A stretch of 21,933 nucleotides of DNA, taken from IMG/VR virus record IMGVR_UViG_3300046534_001355. The stretch is one strand, 5' to 3'. The first letter of the stretch is position 1. Each line of letters opens with the position of its first letter. Origin of the DNA: a virus (Duplodnaviria; Heunggongvirae; Uroviricota; Caudoviricetes). The notes under the pieces are model-generated. The model was given only the letters and a program-made list of their open reading frames with translations, did no database searches and was not told the origin of the DNA. The translations under genes were made by a program, and so were the position numbers. Shown here in pieces: positions 3,751-21,839 of the stretch.

Positions 3751-6022
3751 AGCCTCCGGGCGTTTTGTCCCTCCGTCAGCATTTGCCGCAGGCACCGGTA
3801 AGACGTTTACCGGTGCTTATGCATGGAACGCGCCACGCGAGGCCGTCGGGCGCGAAAGACCCCTTACACGTGACGAGATGCGTCAGGTGCAAGGTGTTTT
3901 ATCCACGATTAACCGCCTGCCTTACTTTTTGCGCTCGCTGTTTACTTCACACTATGACTACATCCGGCGCAATAAAAGCCCGGTGCACGGGTTTTATTTC
4001 CTCACATCCACTTTTCAGCGTCGTTTATGGCCGCGCATTGAGCGTGTGAATCAGCGCCATGAAATGAACACCGACGCGTCGTTGCTGTTTCTGGCAGAGC
4101 GTGACCACTATGCGCGCCTGCCGGGAATGAATGACAAGGAGCTGAAAAAGTTTGCCGCCCGTATCTCATCGCAGCTTTTCATGATGTATGAGGAACTCAG
4201 CGATGCCTGGGTGGATGCACATGGCGAAAAAGAATCGCTGTTTACGGATGAGGCGCAGGCTCACCTCTATGGTCATGTTGCTGGCGCTGCACGTGCTTTC
4301 AATATTTCCCCGCTTTACTGGAAAAAATACCGTAAAGGACAGATGACCACGAGGCAGGCATATTCTGCCATTGCCCGTCTGTTTAACGATGAGTGGTGGA
4401 CTCATCAGCTCAAAGGCCAGCGTATGCGCTGGCATGAGGCGTTACTGATTGCTGTCGGGGAGGTCAATAAAGACCGTTCTCCTTATGCCAGTAAACATGC
4501 CATTCGTGATGTGCGTGCACGCCGCCAGGCAAATCTGGAATTTCTTAAATCGTGTGATCTCGAAAACAGGGAAACCGGCGAGCGCATCGACCTTATCAGT
4601 AAGGTGATGGGCAGTATTTCTAATCCTGAAATTCGCCGGATGGAGCTGATGAACACCATTGCCGGTATTGAGCGTTACGCCGCAGCAGAGGGTGATGTGG
4701 GGATGTTTATCACGCTGACCGCGCCGTCAAAGTATCACCCGACACGTCAGGTTGGAAAAGGCGAAAGTAAAACCGTCCAGCTAAATCACGGCTGGAACGA
4801 TGAGGCATTTAATCCAAAGGATGCGCAGCGTTATCTCTGCCGTATCTGGAGCCTGATGCGCACGGCATTCAAGGATAATGATTTACAGGTCTACGGTTTG
4901 CGTGTCGTCGAGCCACATCACGACGGAACGCCGCACTGGCATATGATGCTTTTTTGTAATCCGCGCCAGCGTAACCAGATTATCGAAATCATGCGTCGCT
5001 ATGCGCTCAAAGAGGATGGCGACGAAAGAGGAGCCGCGCGAAACCGTTTTCAGGCAAAACACCTTAATCGGGGCGGTGCTGCGGGGTATATCGCGAAATA
5101 CATCTCAAAAAACATCGACGGCTATGCACTGGATGGTCAGCTCGATAACGATACCGGCAGACCTCTGAAAGATACTGCCGCGGCTGTTACTGCATGGGCG
5201 TCAACGTGGCGCATCCCGCAATTTAAAACGGTTGGTCTGCCGACAATGGGGGCTTACCGTGAACTACGCAAATTGCCTCGCGGCGTCAGCATTGCTGATG
5301 AGTTTGACGAACGCGTCGAGGCTGCACGCGCTGCCGCAGACAGTGGCGATTTTGCGTTGTATATCAGTGCGCAGGGTGGGGCAAATGTTCCGCGCGATTG
5401 CCAGACTGTCAGAGTCGCCCGTAGCCCGTCGGATGAAGTTAACGAGTACGAGGAAGAAGTCGAGAGAGTGGTCGGCATTTACGCGCCGCATCTCGGCGCG
5501 CGTCATATTCATATCACCAGAACGACGGACTGGCGCATTGTGCCGAAAGTTCCGGTCGTGGAGCCTTTGACTTTAAAAAGCGGCATCGCCGCGCCTCGGA
5601 GTCCTGTCAATAACTGTGGAAAGCTCACCGGTGGTGATACTTCGTTATCGGCTCCCACACCGACTGAGCATGCTGCAGCGGTGTTAAATTTTATAGATGA
5701 AGGGATTCTAAGTTGGACCGAGCCAGGCATTATGAAGGTACTTAGAGACTTATTGAGTAATGAACTGAAATGCAGTAATCGTTCACAGCAGAGCTTTACT
5801 CCTTTCAATGGTCGAAGCTACTTTCCTGCCCCATCCGCCCGGTTGACAAGGCAGGAGAGAAAGACTATCCCGAAAATTAAGGTTCTTCTTGCACAAAGTG
5901 ACATTCAGGCTAGTTATTGGGAGCTTGAAGCTCTCGCTCGCGGAGCTGTTTTGGATTTTGGGCATAAGCGTTTTAAATTTGATACCGATATCGACTTTTT
6001 TGACAGACAGCGTGAGTGGTAG
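3740..6022 (+). CDS. A: Replication initiation protein A (rolling-circle nickase), divergent AT-rich 3' end
   Basis: Start taken at MAVKASGRF (ATG 3740), not the track start 3698. HUH-like motif PHWHMMLF and two-tyrosine motif GYIAKYISK seen. The last ~110 codons (from about 5690) are clearly more AT-rich than the rest. Confidence 0.88.
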   Translation: MAVKASGRFVPPSAFAAGTGKTFTGAYAWNAPREAVGRERPLTRDEMRQVQGVLSTINRLPYFLRSLFTSHYDYIRRNKSPVHGFYFLTSTFQRRLWPRIERVNQRHEMNTDASLLFLAERDHYARLPGMNDKELKKFAARISSQLFMMYEELSDAWVDAHGEKESLFTDEAQAHLYGHVAGAARAFNISPLYWKKYRKGQMTTRQAYSAIARLFNDEWWTHQLKGQRMRWHEALLIAVGEVNKDRSPYASKHAIRDVRARRQANLEFLKSCDLENRETGERIDLISKVMGSISNPEIRRMELMNTIAGIERYAAAEGDVGMFITLTAPSKYHPTRQVGKGESKTVQLNHGWNDEAFNPKDAQRYLCRIWSLMRTAFKDNDLQVYGLRVVEPHHDGTPHWHMMLFCNPRQRNQIIEIMRRYALKEDGDERGAARNRFQAKHLNRGGAAGYIAKYISKNIDGYALDGQLDNDTGRPLKDTAAAVTAWASTWRIPQFKTVGLPTMGAYRELRKLPRGVSIADEFDERVEAARAAADSGDFALYISAQGGANVPRDCQTVRVARSPSDEVNEYEEEVERVVGIYAPHLGARHIHITRTTDWRIVPKVPVVEPLTLKSGIAAPRSPVNNCGKLTGGDTSLSAPTPTEHAAAVLNFIDEGILSWTEPGIMKVLRDLLSNELKCSNRSQQSFTPFNGRSYFPAPSARLTRQERKTIPKIKVLLAQSDIQASYWELEALARGAVLDFGHKRFKFDTDIDFFDRQREW

Positions 6023-6110: not shown

Positions 6111-7334
6111 ATGAGCATGGTTGAATGGATAAGCCACGAGAAAAAAGATAGCCTGATACTATTTGTACATGGATTAAATGGTGGTTTGGAAACATGGAAC
6201 TTTAATAAAGAAATTTCATTTCCAAAACTATTAGCAGAAGATGAAGATATTAGCAACGTATTTGATATTGCATGTTTCAATTATTTTACTAAATTCACAC
6301 AAACGTATGCTAAAACGTCAGGATTCTTGGCTCGTATTTTCTTTAAGAAAAATAAGTTAGAGAGAAATTTACCAACTGATGAAATAGCTGAGTTATTGTA
6401 TACTGAGATTAGAGTAACACTAAGTGATTACTCTCGAATTATAATAATCGCCCATAGTATGGGGGGGTTAATATCAAAAAATCTAATTCTAAAAAAAGTT
6501 GAGCATGAGGAACAATCTAATATAATTGGATTCATTTCGTTAGCAGTCCCTCACTTTGGTGCTAAATTAGCGAATATAACTTCAATGGTATCTTCAAATG
6601 CTCAGTTAGTAGATCTTGGATTGTTAAGTGAAGCGACTGATACATTGAATAGGCGCTGGATAAATTGTAGCAAAAAACTTCCTATCACTAGATATGTTTA
6701 TGGATCTCATGACACTATAGTCGATAAAAAAAGCGCATTACCGATGGATAGTGAACGACATAACTCAATTGCAGTTAATGAAGGGCATAGCTCAATTTGC
6801 AAGCCCGAAAATAGCTCGTCTACAGTGTTTGTTGCGGTAAAGCAATTTATTCAGCAGATAAATTTAGAAGCACCCAAGAAGATTTGCGTTGAGCGTTTTT
6901 CTGATGATAAACAATATGATAATGAGTATTTCGTCTTAAAAATGATTGTCGCAGATATACATCAGGATATCGCTCTGCATGCAAAGGAATATTATTATAA
7001 TGCTGAGCTTGCGAGAAATATTTTTACGAGTGATTACGATAGAAAACAACTTGGTCATTTGTATTCTAAAATAAGGGAGATTTACCAGGAAGAGTATGAG
7101 CAATACATTGCAAATTCAATTTCCCCAGATAAATTTATTGCTGCTGTTCATAGACGAATAACCCAGGAGGATAAGTCGTCGTTAGATTCTCTTATAAAAA
7201 GTTTGGAAACGATACATAAGAAAGGAATGTTGCATCAACTGGCTAACAAAAATGACAGGGATATTGTCTGGTCATCTGAAACCAGCGTAGAAACTTTGGA
7301 GCAATTACGGCGAGGTAATCATGAAGAAAAATAA
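6111..7334 (+). CDS. Lipase-like alpha/beta hydrolase fused to a C-terminal helical domain; candidate defence effector (LmuA-like position)
   Basis: FVHGLNGG oxyanion-hole-like motif; nucleophile elbow AHSMGG (Ser116, nt 6456-6458), identical to the Bacillus lipase A pentapeptide; later GSHDTIVD and EGHSSI supply candidate Asp/His. AT-rich; first gene of a 3-gene overlapping operon. Confidence 0.7.
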   Translation: MSMVEWISHEKKDSLILFVHGLNGGLETWNFNKEISFPKLLAEDEDISNVFDIACFNYFTKFTQTYAKTSGFLARIFFKKNKLERNLPTDEIAELLYTEIRVTLSDYSRIIIIAHSMGGLISKNLILKKVEHEEQSNIIGFISLAVPHFGAKLANITSMVSSNAQLVDLGLLSEATDTLNRRWINCSKKLPITRYVYGSHDTIVDKKSALPMDSERHNSIAVNEGHSSICKPENSSSTVFVAVKQFIQQINLEAPKKICVERFSDDKQYDNEYFVLKMIVADIHQDIALHAKEYYYNAELARNIFTSDYDRKQLGHLYSKIREIYQEEYEQYIANSISPDKFIAAVHRRITQEDKSSLDSLIKSLETIHKKGMLHQLANKNDRDIVWSSETSVETLEQLRRGNHEEK

Positions 7335-7833
7335 CTTGCCGTATATACCTCTTGATGAAGAGTATAGTTTGAATTTTGCTATGCTTGCCATTGCTATATC
7401 TATATTATCTCATAGCAAAAAAGGAGTGTTGTCATTAGATATTAATAAAATACAAATTTTTATGTATCTGATAAAAAATCCATCAAAAATTGATTGTGCT
7501 CTTACAGTTTCGGGGAAAAAGCCTGCTTGTGTCGAGTCCCAGTTAACTTATACAATAAAGAGTTTTTCATCAAATGTAGATATCTTATTCGACAATTCCA
7601 AAGTGAAATATCTTATAAAAATTATGTCATTGCGGGGATTGCTCTCAGCTGAGAAAAAAAATAATGAGAGTGTTAAATTATTTTTATCTGAAAAAGGTAA
7701 GGAATTTGCTAGCTCATTGACTGATGGATATTTTAAAGAAATAAAACGACTAGCCGAAGCATTGTTACCGCTACAAGCATTGCCTACCTCTAAGTTAAAC
7801 TCTGTTATAAACAAAGTCTTCAAGGAGAAATGA
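7321..7833 (+). CDS. Small middle-gene protein of the operon (LmuC-like position)
   Basis: 170-aa ORF overlapping the upstream stop by 14 nt and the downstream start by 4 nt (ATGA), implying translational coupling; no recognisable motifs. Confidence 0.55.
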   Translation: MKKNNLPYIPLDEEYSLNFAMLAIAISILSHSKKGVLSLDINKIQIFMYLIKNPSKIDCALTVSGKKPACVESQLTYTIKSFSSNVDILFDNSKVKYLIKIMSLRGLLSAEKKNNESVKLFLSEKGKEFASSLTDGYFKEIKRLAEALLPLQALPTSKLNSVINKVFKEK

Positions 7834-9800
7834 TGAAATCATATCTCAATATCAATAGTTTGATTCTTGTTGGCGTTCGTAAAAACTACGTCACTACTTT
7901 TTATAAAGGTCTCAATGTTATCTACGGAGACTCTGACACAGGTAAGTCAAGTATTCTGGAGTTTATTAATTATCTTTTAGGTGCTAGTTCTATAGATTTA
8001 GCAGATGAAATAAAAACATCAGTAAACTATGCTGCTCTTGAAGTAGTGATCAATGATACTGTATTCACAATCGTAAGAGATATCTATGATCATAAAAAAT
8101 CAATAGAAGTTTATCGTTGTAAGTTTGATGATTTACATAAACACTTTCCGAAAAAATACGCTCCTAATTATAGCCCCTTATCAAATGTTGATGGCGTTTT
8201 TTCGGAGTTTTTACTTGATAGTCTTAATTTTCCAAAAATTGAAATTAAGGTGTCTCCTTCTAAAGCACATTCACAGATGCGCAGGTTAAGCTTTAGAAAT
8301 ATATATAAATTTGTTTATGTAAGTCAGGATGATATTGGTAGTAAATCATTCTTACGATTGGAGGATTGGTCCCGTTACGCATTTACGAAAGAAGTTTTTA
8401 AATACATGTTCAATGTGTTGGATGAAAGCATCGCCAGACTCCAAGGTGAAATATCTGCAAAAAGTAGTTTAGTAACGGAACTAAATAAGAAGTATCAGAT
8501 AATATCTGAATTTCTTCGCGATACAGACTATGAAACAATTGAATCAATTGATGATGAGATTAATAGGATAGATCTTATTTTAGAAGAACTTGTTGCAGGT
8601 TTGTCTGCTCTCGATAAAAATATGAAAGCGGATTCCATGCAGTATACAGAATTGAAAGATGCCCACAATTTTATTTCGCTTAAATACAAGGAGTGCATAT
8701 TAAATATTAGCACGCTTGAGGATAAGATTGATAAATATTCGCGGTTAAAAAATGACTATGATAATGATATTGAAAAACTCAAAGCGATTAAAACAGCAAA
8801 TTCTCGCATTGGTGTATTGGATAAGGAAGTATTTTCCTGTCCGATCTGTGATAGCCACATTAAAATAGATGATTCCGATTTTCCATTTGAAATTTCATCA
8901 GAAAAAGATCTTAATGAAGAGTTGAATTCACTTAGTCGACGTAGACGAAATATTAATGACATGATCTCAGAAATGTCATTTAAATTAAAAAAAGAATCTG
9001 GTTATAAAAAAGAATTAGATGAACAACTTGACGAGTTGAGAGAGTTAATTGACGAAGAAAGCCAGTCAATGATTACACCATTCTTGACTCAGAGAGATTT
9101 TTATATTAAAGAGATATCAAAAAACGAGAAGGTTAGGGAGCAGTTAGTAAAAGATTTGAAGGTTAGAAACCAGCAAGAGGAACTGCTTGAAAAGCATCAG
9201 GTACTGATAAAAGATATTGAAACATTAACTGAACGCTTGGATGCGTTAAAGAAAAACGCACCTAGTATGGAAGGCATTTTACAAGGTTTAGGTGATAGAT
9301 TTAGTCAGTATTTGAAGGGTATTAATATCAAAAACAGAACGGGGATAAAAATCTCTGAAAGATATTACACCCCTGTTATAAGAGGAAAGGAATATTTTAA
9401 AATAACGTCCGGAGGTTTGAGAACTATTTCTTCTATTGGGTATCTTTTGTCTATTCTTGATTATGCAATAGACCATAATGTTAACCATCCTTTACTTTTG
9501 ATATTTGATACGGTTGGTAAATATTTAGGGAAACAGACCAAGGAAAAATACTCAAAAGAAACTCTTGCAGTCGAGGATGACCTTGAGGGGATGTCAGACC
9601 CGATGAAGTATCAAAATATTTATGAGCAACTATTGAATACAGTTCAAAAAGCAGAAAGAAAAAATGTTCCGTGCCAGATTATATTAGTTGATAATGATTT
9701 GCCTAATTCGTTTTCTACTGGTGAACTTTCGAATATTATCGCTCATTATAGCTCGGTTGGTGAGGATGGTTTGCCTTTAGGTTTAATTGATGACCTTTAA
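7830..9800 (+). CDS. SMC/Rad50-like ABC ATPase with coiled-coil and CxxC hook (LmuB-like)
   Basis: Walker A GDSDTGKSS (res 33-40); long charged heptad-rich middle; CPIC at res 337-340, the midpoint; ABC signature-like TSGGLRT (~res 526); Walker B-like LLLIFDT (~res 555-561). Confidence 0.75.
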   Translation: MMKSYLNINSLILVGVRKNYVTTFYKGLNVIYGDSDTGKSSILEFINYLLGASSIDLADEIKTSVNYAALEVVINDTVFTIVRDIYDHKKSIEVYRCKFDDLHKHFPKKYAPNYSPLSNVDGVFSEFLLDSLNFPKIEIKVSPSKAHSQMRRLSFRNIYKFVYVSQDDIGSKSFLRLEDWSRYAFTKEVFKYMFNVLDESIARLQGEISAKSSLVTELNKKYQIISEFLRDTDYETIESIDDEINRIDLILEELVAGLSALDKNMKADSMQYTELKDAHNFISLKYKECILNISTLEDKIDKYSRLKNDYDNDIEKLKAIKTANSRIGVLDKEVFSCPICDSHIKIDDSDFPFEISSEKDLNEELNSLSRRRRNINDMISEMSFKLKKESGYKKELDEQLDELRELIDEESQSMITPFLTQRDFYIKEISKNEKVREQLVKDLKVRNQQEELLEKHQVLIKDIETLTERLDALKKNAPSMEGILQGLGDRFSQYLKGINIKNRTGIKISERYYTPVIRGKEYFKITSGGLRTISSIGYLLSILDYAIDHNVNHPLLLIFDTVGKYLGKQTKEKYSKETLAVEDDLEGMSDPMKYQNIYEQLLNTVQKAERKNVPCQIILVDNDLPNSFSTGELSNIIAHYSSVGEDGLPLGLIDDL

Positions 9801-10115: not shown

Positions 10116-11090
10116 TCAGCCGTTGTCAGTGTCCAGTGAGTAGTTTTTAAAGCGGATGACCTCCTGACCGAGCCAGCCGTTTATCTCACGGATCCTGTCC
10201 TGTAACGGGATAAGCTCATTGCGGACAAAGACCTTTGCCACTTTCTCAATATCACCCAGCGACCCGACGTTCTCCGGCTTGCCGCCCATCAACTGAAAGG
10301 GGATGCGGTGCGCGTCCAGCAGGTCTGCGGCACTGGCTTTTTTGATATTAAAAAAATCGTCCTTCGTCGCCACTTCACTGAGCGGGATAATTTTAATGCC
10401 GTCGGCTTTTCCCTGTGGGGCATAGAGAAACAGGTTTTTAAAGTTGTTGCGGCCTTTCGACTTCACCATGTTTTCGCGAAGCATTTCGATATCGTTGCGA
10501 TCCTGCACGGCATCAGTGACGTACATGATGTATCCGGCATGTGCGCCGTTTTCGTAATACTTGCGGCGGAACAGCGTGGCCGACTCATTCAGCCAGGCAG
10601 AGTTAAGGGCGCTGAGATATTCCGGCAGGCCGTACAGCTCCTGATTAATATCGGGCTCCAGCAGGTGAAACACGGAACCGGGCGCGAAGGCTGTCGGTTC
10701 GTTGAAGGACGGCACCCACCAGTAAACATCCTCCTCCACGCCACGGCGGGTATATTTTGCCGGTGAGGTTTCCAGTCTGATGACCTTACCGGTGGTGCTG
10801 TAACGCTTTTCCAGAAACGCATTACCGAACACCAGAAAATCCAGCACAAAGCGGCTGAAATCCTGCTGGGAAAGTCGCCGAAAATCGCCAGTGTGCATCA
10901 GTTCGGTCTGTCGGAAGAAACCCGGAAAGACGGTAAGAAAATTGATTATCCGGCGCGTCCTCTGCTCGGCTTTACCGGTGAGGATGTGCAGATGATTGAA
11001 GAGATTATCCTGGCTCACCTTGAGCGTTAGTTTTATCCAGGCAGAGGCTGATGCGCAATTAAACATTGAGCGGCCATGCTGGTCGCTCAA
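10116..11090 (-). pseudogene. Q: Portal protein Q, apparently 5'-truncated remnant
   Basis: Minus-strand ORF with C-terminus next to cos as in P2. Only 324 codons (P2 Q about 344), begins with TTG inside a 12-bp-arm hairpin, and the upstream partner P (terminase) is absent. Confidence 0.6.
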
Positions 11091-11095
11091 TGTTT
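11061..11095. repeat. Inverted repeat (12-bp arms AAACATTGAGCG / CGCTCAATGTTT, 11-nt loop) at the Q-side deletion junction
   Basis: Perfect 12-bp arms read directly from the sequence; overlaps the putative Q start and lies just 3' of the membrane-protein gene stop. Confidence 0.7.
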
Positions 11096-11101
11096 AGAGG
11101 C

Positions 11102-11887
11102 TTATGAGTGATTTTTATTTGATGCTTTGTATTCTACAACCTTCTTATTGGCGTAAAGGAATTTTGTATATGACAGGAATATAACCAGACCTGAAATGAA
11201 ATAGATGAGGGATATTATTAATAATGCTTTTTTTTGGCTGTTATTATCTTTAATTTCCTGACTTAACCATTCCGAGTCCTCCTCGTTTAGCTGTAAGAGC
11301 TTATTGCAGGCGATCTCAGGAAGTGTGTCTTTTATAAATATGTTTCGTAGCCTCTTGCAATCGGCAAGGCTATAAGTTTTATTGAATTCAACTGTTTTAT
11401 TGTTGAAGGATAAAAGAACTTTGTCACTATAAACATAGTACATCATATTTTTATATGGTATGCCTATGGCATCTCTTACTATAGCGGATTGTTTGTTGTG
11501 TATATAACATGCGAAGAGAATATAAATAATGCTGGACAGAATTACAATTATTGTTTTAATTATGTGTGGTGGTTTTGTTATGTCACCCCAGAAGCGAGTA
11601 AGAAAAAAATACGATGTTTTTAGTTTTCCATCAATCAGCCCCTGCTGTATCATTCTCACATCTTCGATGCCTGATACATTGATTCCGTTAATTATTTTAA
11701 ATAGTTGAATGTCGCGCCATTTTTTGTCGAGCATTTTTAACTTTCTGTCTGAATACTCAAAATTGAAATGATGTGCAATAAACCTCATAAGATTACTTTT
11801 ACCAAAGGTAATAAATGTTAATGCTATTAATAAAAATAGATACAAAGAGATAAACCACCACGCATTAGTCACATTATCACTGAACAT
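11102..11887 (-). CDS. AT-rich orphan membrane protein (3 predicted TM helices), unknown function
   Basis: 261-aa ORF with hydrophobic segments at about res 10-28, 107-127 and 222-241; GGAG 7-8 nt upstream of ATG; composition unlike the flanking backbone. Confidence 0.6.
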   Translation of the reverse strand: MFSDNVTNAWWFISLYLFLLIALTFITFGKSNLMRFIAHHFNFEYSDRKLKMLDKKWRDIQLFKIINGINVSGIEDVRMIQQGLIDGKLKTSYFFLTRFWGDITKPPHIIKTIIVILSSIIYILFACYIHNKQSAIVRDAIGIPYKNMMYYVYSDKVLLSFNNKTVEFNKTYSLADCKRLRNIFIKDTLPEIACNKLLQLNEEDSEWLSQEIKDNNSQKKALLIISLIYFISGLVIFLSYTKFLYANKKVVEYKASNKNHS

Positions 11888-11970
11888 TACGCTCTCCTCG
11901 AATGTTGTATGGTCGTTCTACAAATGAATCCAGATAGCATAACTTTTATATATTGTGCAATCTCACACGC

Positions 11971-12606
11971 ATGAACACTCTCGCAAATATTCAGGAACTC
12001 GCGCGCGCACTGCGCAACATGATTCGTACCGGCCTTGTCGTCGAAACCAACCTTAAAGCCGGTCGCTGCCGTGTGCAGACCGGTGGCATGTGCACTGACT
12101 GGCTTCAGTGGCTGACCCATCGTGCCGGACGTTCGCGCACATGGTGGGCACCTTCCGTGGGGGAACAGGTGCTGATTCTGGCTGTGGGCGGTGAACTCGA
12201 CACGGCGTTCGTTCTGCCGGGGATTTATTCCGGCGATAACCCCGCGCCGTCTGCGTCGGCGGATGCCCTGCATATCCGTTTCCCTGACGGGGCGGTGATT
12301 GAGTATGAACCCGAAACCAGTGCACTCACGGTAAGCGGAATTAAAACGGCCAGCGTGACGGCTTCTGATTCTGTTACTGCCACGGTGCCGGTGGTCATGG
12401 TGAAAGCATCAACCCGCGTCACCCTGGACACACCGGAGGTGGTTTGCACCAACAGGCTGATTACCGGCACGCTGGAAGTGCAGAAGGGCGGGACGATGCG
12501 CGGCAACATTGAACACACCGGCGGTGAACTCTCATCAAACGGTAAGGTACTGCATACCCATAAACACCCCGGCGACAGCGGCGGCACAACCGGGAGCCCT
12601 CTATGA
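11971..12606 (+). CDS. V: Baseplate spike protein V (211 aa)
   Basis: Start at MNTLANIQELARALRNMIRTG (ATG 11971); length and sequence match P2 gpV as I recall it. Confidence 0.9.
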   Translation: MNTLANIQELARALRNMIRTGLVVETNLKAGRCRVQTGGMCTDWLQWLTHRAGRSRTWWAPSVGEQVLILAVGGELDTAFVLPGIYSGDNPAPSASADALHIRFPDGAVIEYEPETSALTVSGIKTASVTASDSVTATVPVVMVKASTRVTLDTPEVVCTNRLITGTLEVQKGGTMRGNIEHTGGELSSNGKVLHTHKHPGDSGGTTGSPL

Positions 12607-14396: not shown

Positions 14397-17255
14397 ATGA
14401 GCACGAAATTTAAAACCGTTATCACTACTGCCGGAGCCGCAAAGCTGGCAGCCGCCACTGTCCCCGGCGGGAAAAAAGTAACCCTGTCTGCAATGGCCGT
14501 GGGTGACGGTAATGGCAAATTGCCGGTGCCGGATGCTGGTCAGACGAAACTGGTGCATGAGGTCTGGCGTCACGCCCTGAATAAAGTCAGCGTGGATAAC
14601 AAGAATAAAAACTATATCGTGGCTGAACTGGTTGTACCGCCAGAAGTGGGCGGCTTCTGGATGCGTGAACTTGGTCTGTATGACGATGCCGGAACACTGA
14701 TTGCGGTCGCTAACATGGTAGAAAGCTATAAGCCTGAACTGGCTGAAGGCTCCGGGCGTGCGCAGACCTGCCGCATGGTTATTATTGTCAGTAACGTGGC
14801 GTCTGTTGAGCTGAGTATTGATGCCAGCACGGTGATGGCGACGCAGGATTACGTCGATAAAGCCATATCCAGTTTTCATCGTACTGTCATTGATGATGTG
14901 GTTCTTCAGCATAAAGTTGTCCACGATATTGACTACGCCGGGATTTTTGACGGTGCGGATAATATGAGTCAGGGGTTCTGTATCTGTGATACGCCGCAGG
15001 GAACCAGAATGTTTCTGCATCAGCCTGTATCGGGTGGCGTAAGGATTGTTGAAACGACATTTAACCCTGACGGAGAAAACGAAAACCCGACGGTCATTTC
15101 GTTTTCTCCCGTTTTCGCTGATATTGGTCACCAGAGTATCGGGGCTGTATGTGAAGACGGTCGCGTGATGCTGTATACCCCGACCGCTGACGGCAAGGGT
15201 GTGAATATCATCAACTGGAATGGGGCTGACACCAGTCTGACAGATGTCACCCGTACGGAGATTTTCACCTCTGACTTTTTTACCGGGGATGAAATTATAA
15301 CGGTGGCATTGTCGGTAGACGGAAGCCTGTTGATTGTTCAGTCAAGTAATGAAGCCGTCCATCTTCATTACAACAGGGATGACCGCCGCACAGTTTATGT
15401 TTTCGATCGCGCTTCTCTGACGTTTAAACACCGGATTTATCTGTCCACCCAGTCAATGGTGTCGCAGGCATTTCAGGGGATGGCCAGCGATGGTCATTAT
15501 CTGTTTGCTTATTACGGTTATACAGGCGTATTTCTGACTCACCGCATTGTTGTATATAACCTGTCAACGGGCGAAGTTGTCAGACAGTTCAATGTGGATG
15601 GCGTTCGTGCCAGGTATGGCCGCCAGAAAATGCTGGGGAATGCAGAGCTGGGGTATCCCGTTTTGCAGGAAGCCGAAGGGCTGGCTCTTCATAACGGAAA
15701 ACTGTATCTGCTCGATATGGATTTCTGGTGTCAGACAGCAGATGTGGTTTCTTTTGAGGGGGCATACTTTGCAGCACGTGCAACAAATTTTTCTGGCCGT
15801 TCCCCGGTGAATCCATCTTACTGCACGCCTACAGCATATGGAACGGCGGCTGCAACGAAATATGATGCCACGAAGTCTTATACGTGTGGCGTGGCGACAA
15901 AACGCAGCAAAGCTGTGGTTTCCGTGGAGGCTTACGACGGCACAGGCTATCTGGTGGACTCCGGCGTGGCGTTTCCTGACAGCCATGCTAGCCTTTTTCT
16001 GAGTCCCAATGCTGTAAATATTGCCCTGTCACCCAATGAAGACTTCCAGGTGGCAGCCTATGAGCAGAATCTGCGCTCGCATCGCCCGTTATTTGAGGTC
16101 AGAAAGGAGGCTCCGGATACAGACACTTCTGCTGCTGTTTTTCGTTTGTACGGGGATGCGTTCCGAACCGGAGAATACACAGGCCGCTTCGTTCAGTGGA
16201 AACACCGACTGAACACCGTGCACGATTGTCTGGAAATACGCGCTGACGTGGATTTGTTGAGCGGTGGCGGGATTAACCTTTACTCAATGAACGATACTCA
16301 GTCGGCGGGGCGCACAAGGCTTTATTGTACCGATGGCAGTGAGACCTGGTCTGTATTATTGAGTCCGGTCTCGCCGGCATTTCATCCCGACCAGGACAAG
16401 GCAATGAATCTGGGGTCATCGCCAAATCGCTGGAATGTGGCATACCTGCAGGGCGTGAATATTAAATCGGATGACGAAACCCAGAAGCGCATGGCCATCA
16501 GCACCACGCTGAAGGCGGGAGCTTTCCAGGTATCAACAGCCGGGAATCTGGGTATTTATGACGATTCTGCTGACGCTTATGTAATTGCAGCCCGTAGTGA
16601 CGGCACTGCATTCATGCAGATGGATACAGATATTAACGGTGCATTCCGGCCATCGGTTAACAATACCAGCGACCTGGGTGCGCCCAACAAAGCGTTCCGG
16701 AGCGTGTATCTCTGCAACTCGCCGACCGTTGTGTCGGATGCGACGTTAAAGGATACACCGCGCGATGCGACGGCAGCCGAAAACGCGGCATTTGCAGAAA
16801 TAGCACGGCTTCCGGGCGTGTGGCGCTGGTTACAGAGAATTGAGGAGGAGGGCGAGGACGCGCGTCTGCACGCCGGGCCGACAGTCCAGGCCGCGATAGC
16901 GGTGATGGAGAAACACGGTCTGGACTGGCGGAAATACAGCGCATTTTGTCTGGATTCGTGGGAAGCGGAGGAGGCACAGTACGAAGATATACCGGAAGAG
17001 TATGAAGATATTCCGGTTCAGCCAGCGATTTATTCGGATGAAGGGGAGCTGTTGAGCGGGACAACTCGTGTGCTTACCCGACAGGCGGAAAGGGTTCTTG
17101 TTCGCCCTGCAACCGAAGCAGGAAGCCGTTATCGCTTCCGGAAAGAGGAGCTTCTCTGGTGGTGTCTACGTGCTGTTGTCAGCCAGGTGGATTTGTTAAT
17201 GGAACGCTTTGTTGACTTAAATCGTCGTTTGATGAAGTTGGAGACTTCAGAATAA
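14397..17255 (+). CDS. H: Tail fibre protein H, extended (952 aa) with divergent distal part and possible C-terminal intramolecular chaperone
   Basis: N-terminus MSTKFKTVITTAGAAKLAAA typical of P2-type H; much longer than P2 H (about 669 aa); C-terminal region contains VVSDATLKD resembling the S-D-x-R/L-K autoproteolysis motif; no separate G gene follows. Confidence 0.8.
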   Translation: MSTKFKTVITTAGAAKLAAATVPGGKKVTLSAMAVGDGNGKLPVPDAGQTKLVHEVWRHALNKVSVDNKNKNYIVAELVVPPEVGGFWMRELGLYDDAGTLIAVANMVESYKPELAEGSGRAQTCRMVIIVSNVASVELSIDASTVMATQDYVDKAISSFHRTVIDDVVLQHKVVHDIDYAGIFDGADNMSQGFCICDTPQGTRMFLHQPVSGGVRIVETTFNPDGENENPTVISFSPVFADIGHQSIGAVCEDGRVMLYTPTADGKGVNIINWNGADTSLTDVTRTEIFTSDFFTGDEIITVALSVDGSLLIVQSSNEAVHLHYNRDDRRTVYVFDRASLTFKHRIYLSTQSMVSQAFQGMASDGHYLFAYYGYTGVFLTHRIVVYNLSTGEVVRQFNVDGVRARYGRQKMLGNAELGYPVLQEAEGLALHNGKLYLLDMDFWCQTADVVSFEGAYFAARATNFSGRSPVNPSYCTPTAYGTAAATKYDATKSYTCGVATKRSKAVVSVEAYDGTGYLVDSGVAFPDSHASLFLSPNAVNIALSPNEDFQVAAYEQNLRSHRPLFEVRKEAPDTDTSAAVFRLYGDAFRTGEYTGRFVQWKHRLNTVHDCLEIRADVDLLSGGGINLYSMNDTQSAGRTRLYCTDGSETWSVLLSPVSPAFHPDQDKAMNLGSSPNRWNVAYLQGVNIKSDDETQKRMAISTTLKAGAFQVSTAGNLGIYDDSADAYVIAARSDGTAFMQMDTDINGAFRPSVNNTSDLGAPNKAFRSVYLCNSPTVVSDATLKDTPRDATAAENAAFAEIARLPGVWRWLQRIEEEGEDARLHAGPTVQAAIAVMEKHGLDWRKYSAFCLDSWEAEEAQYEDIPEEYEDIPVQPAIYSDEGELLSGTTRVLTRQAERVLVRPATEAGSRYRFRKEELLWWCLRAVVSQVDLLMERFVDLNRRLMKLETSE

Positions 17256-17389
17256 ACAAGCCTTAATGAGTATCTGCTTAAAATAGTGTTATCTACAGAT
17301 CAAACTTTAGTTGATACGAGTCACTGTCCTCCCCGTAACAACTGGAGTTAAAAGATGTGATGGCATATAAATATAACATCAAATAATTA

Positions 17390-17427
17390 TTTTTTTTGCC
17401 CCTCACCCTTAATTTAGGGTGAGGGGC
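17390..17427. other. Strong stem-loop (12-bp arms GCCCCTCACCCT / AGGGTGAGGGGC, 6-nt loop) preceded by T8, between convergent H and GT2 genes
   Basis: Perfect inverted repeat; the T-run is 5' of the stem on the plus strand (A-run 3' on minus), so it is not a canonical hairpin-then-U terminator for either strand. Confidence 0.5.
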
Positions 17428-17466
17428 GTCAGATACAAAGTTAGGAGTATCTGTAGTTAAGTGTTT

Positions 17467-18814
<1,348 letters not shown>

Positions 18815-19092
18815 TATGCAACCTCTAACGTTAATAATGTTTATGAATATTCAGAATGCTATCTCATAACATGAAGCATTATATCTGAACATTGTGACAT
18901 GATTTAATGAAGTCATCAGCACATCATGCTGCAATGCATTGCAGTATAACTAACACGAGGGATTGTTTGCATGGTGATAGTTTTGTTGGTGATAAAATCA
19001 GCATAATTAAATATGTTGGCGTACATTTTGAACATTTTTAAGCAAAGCAAATTATAAGTATAAAAATAGTTAATGTGAAGTTGTACTCATGT

Positions 19093-19122
19093 AAAAAGCC
19101 CCGCATTCTCTCGAAGGCGGGG
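19093..19122 (-). terminator. Putative rho-independent terminator (minus-strand transcript)
   Basis: Stem CCCCGC / GCGGGG with 12-nt loop; on the minus-strand RNA the hairpin is followed by CUUUUU. Confidence 0.4.
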
Positions 19123-19211
19123 AAGATTTGAAAATTAATGGTACAAATTGACGATTTCATATTCTATTCTGTATTAGAATAAAAGTGAATATAATTATTT
19201 ATTTTAGGTGA

Positions 19212-19243
19212 TTTTTTAAAAAAAGCCCGTGGAAGCAACGGGC
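19212..19243 (-). terminator. Putative rho-independent terminator (minus-strand transcript)
   Basis: Stem GCCCGT / ACGGGC with 7-nt loop; on the minus-strand RNA followed by U7. Confidence 0.45.
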
Positions 19244-19856
19244 ATAAAACGCGGAATTGATTAAGATCTGTATAATTTAATTTTCTGATTCTATCATGCA
19301 TATCATTCACAGTGAAGTTGGTAATTTAGTAAAACTAGTGATAATGCCACTCGGTTTGATAACAAGAGAAACCACAGCGTGGTTTCGTCGAACAGTTTAT
19401 GAAGGATATTCCCCCCAAATATACACTCGCTTTGTGCTGTAGCAGCGCAGATGCTGGTTGCTATTCTTACCGGGAACTGGGCTTACAAGGCAATAGTAGT
19501 GTGACATTCTTCATCGCGCACGTGCATATCCTGGCTGAAAATCGATGGATAGAAAATATCCGCAAAGGGAAGCGGAGCAGCATACCGTGGTGGGGGCACA
19601 TGTATGGGGTGTTGGAAGTCTGATGGATTTCTTTGTACCAGACAGCTTGTATTTTCATCTTTTCTTTGTTTCTTTGCAGGTAATTATGAGTAGCAACAAA
19701 TCCTGAATGGCTGGGTATACCGCAATAAATAGAGGCGGGCAAGTTGCCCACTTTTTCTTTATCTGTTGTTTCATCCACTGCCCAGCCAGGTCAAATAGCG
19801 TCTCATGCTTCGCACAACAGAAAATAGTTGCACCCATTAACCACGGAGTTAAACGG

Positions 19857-21047
19857 ATGAGTGACTATCATCACGGCGTGCAGGTGCTGGAGATTAACGA
19901 CGGCACCCGCGTCATTTCCACCGTATCCACGGCCATTGTCGGCATGGTCTGCACGGCCAGCGATGCGGATGCGGAAACCTTCCCCGTCAATAAACCGGTG
20001 CTGATTACCAATGTACAGAGCGCAATTGCAAAGGCCGGTAAAAAAGGCACGCTGGCGGCGTCGTTGCAGGCTATCGCCGACCAGTCAAAACCGGTCACTG
20101 TTGTCGTGCGTGTGGAAGACGGCACCGGCGACGACGAGGAAACGAAACTCGCGCAGACCGTTTCCAATATCATCGGCACCACTGACGAAAACGGTCAGTA
20201 CACCGGACTGAAAGCCCTGATGGGGGCTGAGTCGGTTACCGGCGTTAAACCGCGCATTCTTGGTGTGCCGGGGCTGGACACCAAAGAGGTTGCCGTCGCA
20301 CTGGCATCGGTATGCCAGGAACTGAATGCATTCGGGTATATCAGCGCATGGGGCTGTAAAACCATTTCCGAGGCAAAAGCCTACCGTCAGAATTTCAGCC
20401 AGCGTGAGCTGATGGTCATCTGGCCGGATTTCCTCGCATGGGATACGGTTACCAGTACCACTGCCACCGCGTATGCCACCGCCCGTGCGCTGGGGCTGCG
20501 TGCCAAAATCGACCAGGAGCAGGGCTGGCATAAAACGCTGTCCAACGTCGGGGTAAATGGTGTTACCGGCATCAGCGCCTCTGTATTCTGGGATTTGCAG
20601 AAGTCCGGCACTGATGCTGACCTGCTTAACGAGTCAGGCATCACTACGCTGATTCGCCGCGACGGCTTCCGCTTCTGGGGTAACCGTACCTGCTCTGATG
20701 ACCCGCTGTTCCTCTTTGAAAGCTACACCCGCACCGCGCAGGTACTGGCCGACACGATGGCCGAGGCGCACATGTGGGCTATTGATAAGCCAATTACCGC
20801 AACGCTGATTCGTGACATCATTGATGGCATTAATGCCAAATTCCGCGAACTGAAAAACAACGGTTATATCGTGGATGGCACATGCTGGTTCAGTGAAGAA
20901 GCCAATGATGCGGAAACCCTCAAGGCCGGAAAACTGTATATCGACTACGACTATACCCCGGTGCCTCCTCTCGAAAACCTGACCCTGCGCCAGCGTATTA
21001 CTTCCAGATACCTGGCAAGTCTGGTTACCTCGGTTAACAGCAATTAA
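19857..21047 (+). CDS. FI: Tail sheath protein FI (396 aa)
   Basis: Start at MSDYHHGVQVLEINDG (ATG 19857, GGAG upstream), not the track start 19707; length and sequence match P2 gpFI as I recall it. Confidence 0.9.
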   Translation: MSDYHHGVQVLEINDGTRVISTVSTAIVGMVCTASDADAETFPVNKPVLITNVQSAIAKAGKKGTLAASLQAIADQSKPVTVVVRVEDGTGDDEETKLAQTVSNIIGTTDENGQYTGLKALMGAESVTGVKPRILGVPGLDTKEVAVALASVCQELNAFGYISAWGCKTISEAKAYRQNFSQRELMVIWPDFLAWDTVTSTTATAYATARALGLRAKIDQEQGWHKTLSNVGVNGVTGISASVFWDLQKSGTDADLLNESGITTLIRRDGFRFWGNRTCSDDPLFLFESYTRTAQVLADTMAEAHMWAIDKPITATLIRDIIDGINAKFRELKNNGYIVDGTCWFSEEANDAETLKAGKLYIDYDYTPVPPLENLTLRQRITSRYLASLVTSVNSN

Positions 21048-21059
21048 GGAGCCTGACCG

Positions 21060-21839
21060 ATGGCAATGCCGCGCAAACTCAAGTTAATGAACGTCTTTCT
21101 GAACGGCTACAGCTATCAGGGCGTTGCAAAGTCCGTCACGCTGCCAAAACTGACCCGTAAGCTCGAAAACTATCGCGGTGCGGGGATGAACGGCAGCGCA
21201 CCGGTAGACCTCGGCCTTGATGACGATGCGCTGTCAATGGAGTGGTCGCTCGGTGGATTCCCGGATTCGGTTATCTGGGAGCTTTACGCCGCAACCGGTG
21301 TGGATGCCGTGCCGATTCGTTTTGCAGGCTCTTACCAGCGCGACGATACAGGCGTAACGGCAAAGTGGTTACACACCAAAGACCCGAAACCGCAAAAGCA
21401 GAAGGTAAAACTGAAACGCAAAAAGAAAGAGAAACACCTGCGCGCACTGGAGCACCCGAACGCGAAACCGGTCAGGCAGAAGAAAGCGCCTAAAGTACCG
21501 GAAGCGCGTGAAGGTGAATACATGGCCGGTGAGGCTGACAACGTTTTTGCCCTGACCACGGTATATGCCACGAAAGCGCAGGCCATGCGCGCCGCTCAGG
21601 CGAAGTGGGATAAGCTGCAACGGGGCGTTGCGGAGTTCTCCATCAGTCTGGCTACCGGTCGTGCTGATATTTACACGGAAACACCGGTTAAAGTGTCAGG
21701 CTTTAAGCGCGTCATAGACGAGCAGGACTGGACAATCACTAAGGTGACACATTTTCTGAATAATAGCGGCTTCACGACGTCCCTGGAGCTTGAGGTCAGG
21801 CTTTCTGATGTGGAGTACGAAACAGAAGATGATGAGTGA
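21060..21839 (+). pseudogene. Chimeric ORF: tail tube FII N-terminal 98 codons fused in frame to the C-terminal part of tail protein D
   Basis: Residues 1-98 (MAMPRKLKLMNVFLNGYSYQ...SYQRDDTG) match FII; from VTAKWLHTKDPKPQKQ... to ...LELEVRLSDVEYETEDDE resembles the C-terminal third of gpD; junction at about nt 21353; ogr follows directly, as after D in P2. Confidence 0.6.

Follow-up and report, generated by a model that had tools for sequence, protein, structure and literature searches.

An E. coli B allele of phage P2 orf30 in the variable slot between genes S and V

orf30 in the E. coli B prophage

We analyzed a 21,933-nucleotide (nt) stretch of viral DNA (Caudoviricetes; IMG/VR record IMGVR_UViG_3300046534_001355), called the window below, and in it an open reading frame (ORF) on the minus strand at positions 11102-11887 that starts with ATG and encodes a protein of 261 amino acids (aa). 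A preliminary description drawn up from the sequence alone had called this protein an orphan. Our searches did not bear this out. The gene is already known and catalogued, as P2 orf30 and as WP_000490543.1, and it is almost certainly the E. coli B allele of orf30 from bacteriophage P2, carried as a single-gene, AT-rich accessory cassette in a variable slot between genes S and V (the S-V slot) and lying outside a deletion that runs from Q to S in the same prophage.

Several results carry this assignment. First, the window was identical to the defective P2-like prophage that resides beside ogrK/yegQ in E. coli B (REL606, BL21-type, and other B strains), and the gene had a 100% match in REL606, where it is annotated 'hypothetical protein'; B-lineage genomes all share the same intact frame. 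Second, tblastn gave 84.3% amino-acid identity to P2 Orf30 (AAD03281.1, GenBank AF063097) over 261/261 residues, and the protein was 99.6% identical to the copy in the functional phage Peduovirus P24A7b; an orf30 homolog was found by tblastn in 21 phage records. Third, the protein matched the PHROG family phrog_2407 end to end (positions 1-261 of 261, E = 1.8e-143). Finally, 459 of 5426 complete E. coli genomes covered at least 80% of a 1.2-kb query spanning orf30. The P2 GenBank record annotates Orf30 as 'nonessential'. Published work lists orf30 as 'unknown' (PMC6823313, PMC3091744) and counts its locus, beside tin/old and Z/fun, as one of three places with horizontally acquired genes in P2-like phages (PMC3091744). 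A literature search for P2 orf30, WP_000490543, or the Pfam family DUF6216, to which we return below, yielded no assigned function.

As the preliminary description had noted, the frame is AT-rich, with a GC content of 0.32 compared with 0.46 for the whole window and 0.55 for the adjacent tail genes. At this base composition, the arithmetic probability that a frame of 261 codons stays open by chance is ~1e-9, and the ratio of nonsynonymous to synonymous substitution rates (dN/dS) among alleles is 0.3-0.6; together, these values therefore argue that orf30 is a real gene under selection. Two further features of that description also stood up: the gene has its own ribosome-binding site, GGAGAG, 5 nt upstream of the ATG, and it is oriented divergently from V, which begins at 11971 and is the divergent neighbor of every slot-resident family member. 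For the flanking hairpin the outcome was mixed. There is a strong hairpin just past the orf30 stop codon (17-nt arms, 94% complementary; -24.3 kcal/mol and z = -4.1 by folding), but it is not specific to this gene, as the P2 GenBank record labels the same sequence 'putative rho-independent terminator for O operon'. A terminator scanner gave no terminator-like flag for this hairpin, which is likely to be a bidirectional terminator serving the S remnant and orf30. An Rfam scan of the whole window found no RNA family. On the other side of the gene, the dyad TGTATGGTCGTTCTACA at 11906-11922 lies within the putative Ogr activator site of the late promoter PV, and this activator site lies 14 nt upstream of the orf30 ATG; any orf30 promoter must therefore overlap PV. 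Activation of orf30 itself by Ogr was rejected, as the dyad is only ~25 nt from the ATG, which would be the wrong geometry.

The preliminary description had also placed the gene at the deletion junction, and here it was mistaken. The true junction is the join between truncated Q and truncated S at 10863-10874, ~230 nt beyond the orf30 stop codon, and both the S remnant (168 nt) and the terminator separate it from orf30. The gene stands in its native position between S and V, and its two intergenic flanks, including the terminator and the PV region, are 96-97% identical to intact P2. Given this position and these P2-like flanks, we rejected the idea that orf30 is a product created by the deletion; rather, its position just beyond the stretch lost between Q and S allowed it to survive. 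The annotations of the Q and S remnants overlap by 12 nt at 10863-10874, which suggests microhomology. The deletion took the 5' part of Q, most of S, and all of the genes that L008 and L009, two P2-like loci, carry between Q and S, namely those for terminase, scaffold, capsid, head completion, lysis, and R.

Occupants of the S-V slot and the Orf30 family

We surveyed the slot in 78 P2-like loci with V at least 87% identical. It was empty in 50 of these loci, in which a 69-nt spacer stands between S and V, held orf30 in 15, and held other AT-rich cargo in 13. When the window was compared with the empty-slot phage L014, homology stopped at the S stop codon (11032) and resumed at the V ATG (11971), and the 69-nt spacer was unrelated. 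An activator-type dyad was present ~62-68 nt upstream of the V ATG in 6 of the 11 family-bearing slots examined. The loci with other cargo were IMG/VR P2-like contigs (L016, L018, L045, L077-L081, L083-L086, and L088), and their slot genes encode the Pycsar cyclase PycC (L081, E = 1e-128), AAA proteins of the PDC-S59 type (L016 and L077, the former with a borderline TIR_2 match of 27.6 bits against a cut-off of 28.0), a PDC-S33 RelA/SpoT protein (L078), a 357-aa protein with two transmembrane (TM) helices (L079 and relatives), an unknown protein of 247-268 aa (L045 and L083), a Cys-rich protein of 251 aa (L018), and a 180-aa HExxH protein together with a DUF7480 lipoprotein (L084). Because Pycsar, AAA (with or without TIR), and RelA/SpoT genes are among its alternative occupants, the S-V slot behaves as a defense hotspot. 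orf30 itself looks like typical accessory slot cargo of P2-like phages, in that it has a fixed site, varies by presence, absence, or replacement, and has defense genes as its alternatives. The slot is not named in the main text of two published hotspot papers, one of them Rousset et al., 2022 (PMC9122126), and the text of that paper makes no mention of orf30, gpS, or gpV.

For the protein family, a word-index search found only five 90% clusters, four of them E. coli or Yersinia-phage alleles with 75-98% identity and one an Enterobacter protein with 41% identity. A profile search with HMMER over 1.84 billion representatives raised the number to 44 clusters, every one a stand-alone protein, with the full-length ones measuring 239-271 aa. 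The family belongs to the Enterobacterales; its named members, each annotated 'hypothetical', are from E. coli, Yersinia, Pectobacterium, Sodalis, and Enterobacter. The preliminary description had raised the possibility of a housekeeping transporter fragment. This is excluded, as all relatives stand alone, with a length of about 250-270 aa and the same architecture, and as Pfam and NCBIfam gave only sub-threshold noise on the TM helices. An alignment of 29 family members (A4), with identities down to 17%, showed Q60, G67, D75, G86, C176, C193, I211, and K253 to be invariant or nearly so; in A4 numbering, C193 is invariant and C176 at least 90% conserved, and these correspond to Cys194 and Cys177 of the window protein. 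All seven distant relatives tested also fell into phrog_2407, and no other PHROG matched. Collinear matches to the Pfam family DUF6216 (PF19723, profile of 270 positions) occurred in 9 of the 29 members, 8 of them below the cut-off. The remaining one, P0029, from the S-V slot of a Sodalis P2-like prophage, passed the gathering score (28.9 versus 27.3 bits) over residues 10-255 of 267. The window protein itself had no DUF6216 match at E up to 10, and so did not reach the gathering threshold of 27.3 bits. Judged by these scores, the Orf30 family is a sister or divergent wing of DUF6216, linked to it by a bridge at the level of the family and not by membership. DUF6216 carries no functional information, and the sole paper naming it is unrelated.

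The three hydrophobic helices and two soluble parts of the preliminary description were recovered as Kyte-Doolittle peaks at residues 9-29, 107-130, and 221-242, which delimit loops of 77 and 90 residues, and three peaks at matching positions were present in 26 of the 29 family members. Membrane proteins follow the positive-inside rule, and disulfides form in the periplasm. In all 29 members, the N-terminal tail lacks Lys and Arg, the C-terminal tail has 2-5 such residues, and loop 2 contains exactly two cysteines; the mean net charge is +4.3 for loop 1 and ~0 for loop 2. Because of this charge distribution and the two conserved loop-2 cysteines, the best-fitting topology would be N-out and C-in, with loop 1 in the cytoplasm and loop 2, with a Cys177-Cys194 disulfide, in the periplasm. 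Orf30 is thus probably a three-pass inner-membrane protein that has a short periplasmic N-terminus, a 77-residue cytoplasmic helical domain, a 90-residue periplasmic beta/alpha domain that the Cys177-Cys194 disulfide probably pins, and a basic cytoplasmic C-tail. Loop 1, which carries the motif D-x-Q-L-F-K/R-x-x-N-G-I-N-V ... G-x-L ... F/W-G-x-I, has the highest column conservation (0.53), compared with 0.42 for the periplasmic loop and 0.36-0.42 for the helices. An AlphaFold model built with a deeper alignment had a mean predicted local distance difference test score (pLDDT) of 84.6 and a predicted template-modeling score of 0.75, and an earlier model had a pLDDT of 74.5. The model contains a long TM1, cytoplasmic helices at residues 47-66, 73-85, and 90-93 followed by TM2, a beta-meander at 140-172, helices at 173-178 and 188-197, and a long helix at 201-259 that contains TM3.

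Position and orientation of the gene were retained over large distances. All 12 IMG/VR loci of a distant subfamily, together with one locus in an Enterobacter metagenome-assembled genome, had the gene in the S-V slot in the same orientation. So did the DUF6216-matching Sodalis prophage and the prophage with a remote E. coli homolog (17% identity in A4), in both of which the gene lies between V and S and is divergent from V. At the distant slot loci, Orf30 was 21-36% and V 64-85% identical to the window counterpart. By this comparison, slot-resident orf30 appears either to diverge far faster than V or to have been replaced repeatedly by distant homologs. Among close alleles, the dN/dS of orf30 given above compares with 0.06-0.21 for V. 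By segment, in a small sample of six close alleles, it was ~1.2 for the N-terminus plus TM1, ~0.7 for TM2, 0.30 for loop 1, and 0.26 for loop 2, and both soluble loops thus appear to be under purifying selection. The B and P2 alleles differ at 16% of residues, with the differences concentrated in TM1 and TM2. Close alleles have two types of TM1, MFSDNVTNAWWF... and MVSYNVTNVWG/EL..., a split that may point to recombination or to diversifying selection acting on the helices.

Homologs with 37-41% identity were also found as single-gene islets in three Enterobacter genomes (L091, at 4962-5753; L092; and L007) with no S or V nearby. These islets have a GC content of 0.35-0.36 versus 0.59-0.60 (L091 and L092) and occupy at least two chromosomal contexts, and a narrower alignment scan of species-representative genomes returned only three Enterobacter loci. 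Because these homologs lie outside phages, Orf30 can evidently work without P2 partners, to judge from gene neighborhoods. In L091, the islet neighbors, from translations read by eye, are an apparent ECF-sigma gene, a small membrane protein, and a chemoreceptor; in L007, the homolog adjoins a gene for an outer-membrane beta-barrel protein (Pfam).

These distributions bear on whether Orf30 serves the P2 cycle itself, as a laboratory-dispensable accessory factor that acts in lysis timing, in sparing genomes from lysing or lysogenic cells, or in the interplay with P4. The gene does lie among late morphogenesis genes beside V, its 5' end overlaps the PV control region, and the slot is kept across very divergent P2-like phages. 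However, 50 of the 78 close relatives lack it and are presumably viable, its transcription runs counter to the late operons with the Ogr dyad in what would be the wrong geometry for its own activation, and homologs exist free of phage in Enterobacter. The P2 lysis genes are elsewhere, and a protein of 261 residues with two globular domains resembles neither a holin nor an antiholin. We therefore regard a role in the P2 cycle as very unlikely. A holin, antiholin, or lysis regulator in particular was rejected on grounds of length, the two folded domains, and a strand opposite to the late operons. Orf30 had no match to a holin PHROG or Pfam family, and in the P2 GenBank record Y, K, and lysABC lie away from orf30, with lysB and lysC upstream of R and S.

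The remainder of the prophage

From the left, the window contains genes for an integrase and a C-type repressor, cox, the early genes as far as A (replication), an AT-rich block (6111-9800), the remnants of the portal gene Q and of S, orf30, V, W, J, I, H, a second AT-rich block, and, at the right end, FI, truncated FII and D, and ogr (Table 1). The first AT-rich block (plus strand, GC 0.31-0.36) is the old/tin hotspot of P2 and holds a complete three-gene Lamassu system. RefSeq starts LmuC at 7468 (122 aa); a 170-aa ORF from 7321 matches positions 2-166 of the 168 in the model and looks correct. The second block (17000-19500, GC 0.33-0.43) lies between the tail-fiber gene H (952 aa, 14397-17255) and the sheath gene, at the position of the P2 Z/fun hotspot. 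It contains a minus-strand gene for a family-2 glycosyltransferase (RefSeq, ~17467-18579) and small hypothetical ORFs, and the annotation shows no tail-fiber assembly gene (G) from H to the sheath gene. A third internal deletion, at ~21018-21797, brought what is left of the tail-tube gene FII (a 5' fragment) up against what is left of D (a 3' fragment). It removed the tail genes (gpE, the tape measure, and others) that intact P2-like prophages such as L008 and L009 have between FII and D, and ogrK comes next in REL606.

Table 1. Features of the window around orf30 and of the Lamassu system
Feature	Position	Strand	Description and source
LmuA	6111-7334	-> plus	PADLOC E = 1e-108
LmuC	7321-7833	-> plus	PADLOC E = 3e-52
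LmuB	7830-9800	-> plus	PADLOC E = 1e-233
Portal (Q) 3' remnant	10116-10874	minus	Lacks the N-terminus; RefSeq pseudogene; portal homology ends at 10874
S (tail-completion) 3' remnant	10863-11030	plus	Pseudogene; last 168 nt; RefSeq annotation
Variable S-V cassette	11033-11970		938 nt: terminator, orf30, and its own PV region; orf30 is the only gene
Hairpin	11060-11096		Between the convergent stops of the S remnant (11028-11030) and orf30 (11102-11104)
orf30 coding sequence	11102-11887	minus	261 aa; same sequence as REL606 protein WP_000490543.1 (E. coli B); P2 Orf30 ortholog
TM3	11162-11227	minus	aa 221-242; hydropathy; followed by a basic C-tail, aa 243-261 (nt 11105-11161), predicted cytoplasmic
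Loop 2	11228-11497	minus	aa 131-220; predicted periplasmic; four-stranded beta-meander and two short helices
Cys194 codon	11306-11308	minus	Conserved loop-2 cysteine
Cys177 codon	11357-11359	minus	Conserved loop-2 cysteine
TM2	11498-11569	minus	aa 107-130; hydropathy
Loop 1	11570-11800	minus	aa 30-106; predicted cytoplasmic helical domain
TM1	11801-11863	minus	aa 9-29; hydropathy; N-tail, aa 1-8, predicted periplasmic
Shine-Dalgarno GGAGAG	11892-11897	minus	5 nt before the orf30 ATG; read from the sequence; kept in P2
Ogr activator site of late promoter PV	11902-11929	plus	P2 GenBank coordinates transferred through a 97% identical alignment
Gene V (baseplate spike)	11971-12606	plus	Intact; RefSeq and P2 annotation; 96-97% nt identity among P2 alleles

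Candidate functions and known systems

The preliminary description had proposed an exclusion or abortive-infection (Abi) determinant. This idea is reasonable by location and is now somewhat better motivated, as defense genes occupy the same slot and the gene diverges fast, but neither homology nor a structural match to any such function was found. Our tentative preference, which we hold as possible rather than probable, is that Orf30 is a lysogen-expressed envelope protein that acts alone to protect the host-prophage pair from other phages, by exclusion rather than by Abi. In this mechanism, a form of superinfection exclusion, Orf30 would be made in lysogens and would stop phage genomes at the inner membrane or send them astray. 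The tail tip of the incoming phage, or the host channel that it uses, would be met by the variable periplasmic domain and the helices, with the conserved cytoplasmic domain as anchor or transmitter.

Several results weigh against this proposal. First, PADLOC-DB v2 returned no defense family for Orf30 at E up to 1, in a run in which the neighboring LmuA, LmuC, and LmuB scored 1e-52 to 1e-233 and which was therefore valid; PHROG returned nothing besides phrog_2407 at E up to 1, and Pfam and NCBIfam nothing above cut-off. Second, Foldseek searches of the PDB and BFVD with two AlphaFold models gave best E values of 0.05-0.14 and query-normalized TM-scores of at most 0.21. Third, a consensus scan and a relaxed scan found no sigma-70 match of at least 9/12 upstream of orf30; the best candidate, GTGAGA-19-TATGCT, is weak. 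Fourth, the fast divergence of the gene could instead reflect repeated replacement by distant homologs or relaxed constraint on the TM helices. Fifth, to our knowledge, the exclusion phenotypes seen in P2 lysogens have been connected with old, tin, and fun(Z) and with no other gene. Published work is consistent with this statement (PMC8594841). Finally, the same allele is present in E. coli B, which has served as a permissive host for T1-T7 from the outset and in which most BASEL phages cause lysis (PMC8594841); any protection would therefore have to be narrow or conditional.

Other searches for a relative of known function gave a similar picture. A sequence-profile search of the PDB had a best E value of 0.06. 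No sequence relationship to SieA, SieB, Imm, Sp, Cor, Llp, or HK97 gp15 was detected with PHROG, including for the seven distant relatives, and the BFVD Foldseek search gave no viral structural relative. A match to Pfam DUF6535 was dismissed, as it scored 19.8 bits against a cut-off of 23.9 and covered TM1 only.

The lack of a convincing promoter, the broad phage permissiveness of E. coli B, the heavy deletion of the prophage, and a GC content of 32% would all fit a silent passenger in this defective prophage, silenced for example as AT-rich DNA. Yet the frame is intact, identical across the B lineage, and 99.6% identical to the copy of a functional phage, and its ribosome-binding site, terminator, and upstream region are conserved with P2. 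Silence in E. coli B would moreover leave the role of the family unexplained, and we give this explanation little credence.

An Abi-type sensor-effector would act at a different step from exclusion. Its cytoplasmic domain would sense a phage product or perturbation, the helices would oligomerize, the membrane would be depolarized, and the cell would die before progeny appeared. Orf30 could be such a device: it is a single membrane protein with the cytoplasmic loop as its most conserved part, the slot of its gene holds Abi-type Pycsar and RelA/SpoT genes in other phages, and the gene forms a stand-alone unit in Enterobacter chromosomes. It bears no similarity, however, to RexB, to the transmembrane effectors of Pycsar or CBASS, or to any other PADLOC model, and a 90-residue, predicted disulfide-bearing periplasmic domain that appears to be under purifying selection would be superfluous to purely cytoplasmic sensing. 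The permissiveness of E. coli B to most tested phages (PMC8594841) counts against Abi as well, which we judge unlikely.

The same predicted inner-membrane location with a periplasmic domain would also suit an envelope protein of lysogenic conversion without a role in defense, one that gives immunity to a bacteriocin, tailocin, or contact-dependent toxin or modifies envelope physiology. Consistent with this alternative, the gene forms a chromosomal islet outside prophages in Enterobacter, it has no PADLOC defense signature, and the literature since its annotation lists it as unknown and attributes no exclusion phenotype to it. On the other hand, the cassette contains no partner toxin gene, Pfam and NCBIfam gave no match to known immunity-protein families, and some 30 loci are strictly linked to the P2 S-V slot, whose other occupants are anti-phage genes; this explanation, too, seems improbable to us. 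An O-antigen modification protein of the Gtr type was considered and rejected. If Orf30 has no phage-related phenotype, it would be a well-conserved lysogenic-conversion gene.

Exclusion by Orf30 can be set beside one published phenotype. REL606 is lysed by Nonagvirus phages and by Bas65, a T7-like phage, yet these form plaques on it only poorly, which the authors attributed to unidentified immunity in cryptic prophages specific to E. coli B (PMC8594841). Both the Lamassu system and orf30 are candidates for that immunity. If the exclusion or defense function is true, orf30 might help to explain why E. coli B (REL606/BL21) retains immunity to some phages, Orf30 would represent a structurally new one-gene membrane mechanism, and the S-V slot would be a defense hotspot that current surveys do not discuss. 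A bolder extension, which we consider doubtful, is that phrog_2407 constitutes an unrecognized class of single-protein inner-membrane immunity determinant fixed beside V. The fast-evolving periplasmic face and the helices would recognize the parts with which incoming phages penetrate the membrane (spike, tape measure) or the host channel involved, the phages possibly being rival P2-like phages or their satellites, the cytoplasmic domain would execute the block, and the S-V slot would be a third defense hotspot.

P2 is a founding model among temperate phages, and the study of prophage-encoded defense began with its accessory genes old, tin, and fun(Z). P2 Orf30 shares with the window copy its length of 261 aa, its position between S and V, its orientation, its terminator, and its PV region; the window copy differs in sitting in a deleted, defective prophage. 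P22 SieA, T4 Imm, and HK97 gp15 are inner-membrane superinfection-exclusion proteins of temperate or lytic phages. Orf30 resembles them as a single, non-essential, phage-encoded protein of the cytoplasmic membrane that is carried as an accessory gene. By contrast, it is larger, has two folded soluble domains in its model and a conserved pair of cysteines, and shows no detectable sequence relationship to them. The top Foldseek matches for Orf30 were claudin- or TARP-like four-helix proteins, which likewise combine TM helices with a small beta-sheet on the outer face and have four helices where Orf30 has three; with E ~0.1, TM-scores of at most 0.21, and root-mean-square deviations >20 Å, we took this resemblance to be chance.

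What our analysis adds to the catalogued gene is the fidelity of slot and orientation at 21-36% identity, the predicted N-out/C-in topology, a confident model without a structural match, and the presence of defense genes in the same slot. The cargo of the old/tin and Z/fun hotspots of P2 (PMC9122126) consists, like orf30, of AT-rich, horizontally exchanged accessory genes in slots that vary by presence, absence, or replacement. The S-V slot is unlike those two hotspots in that one protein family recurs in it across very divergent phages.

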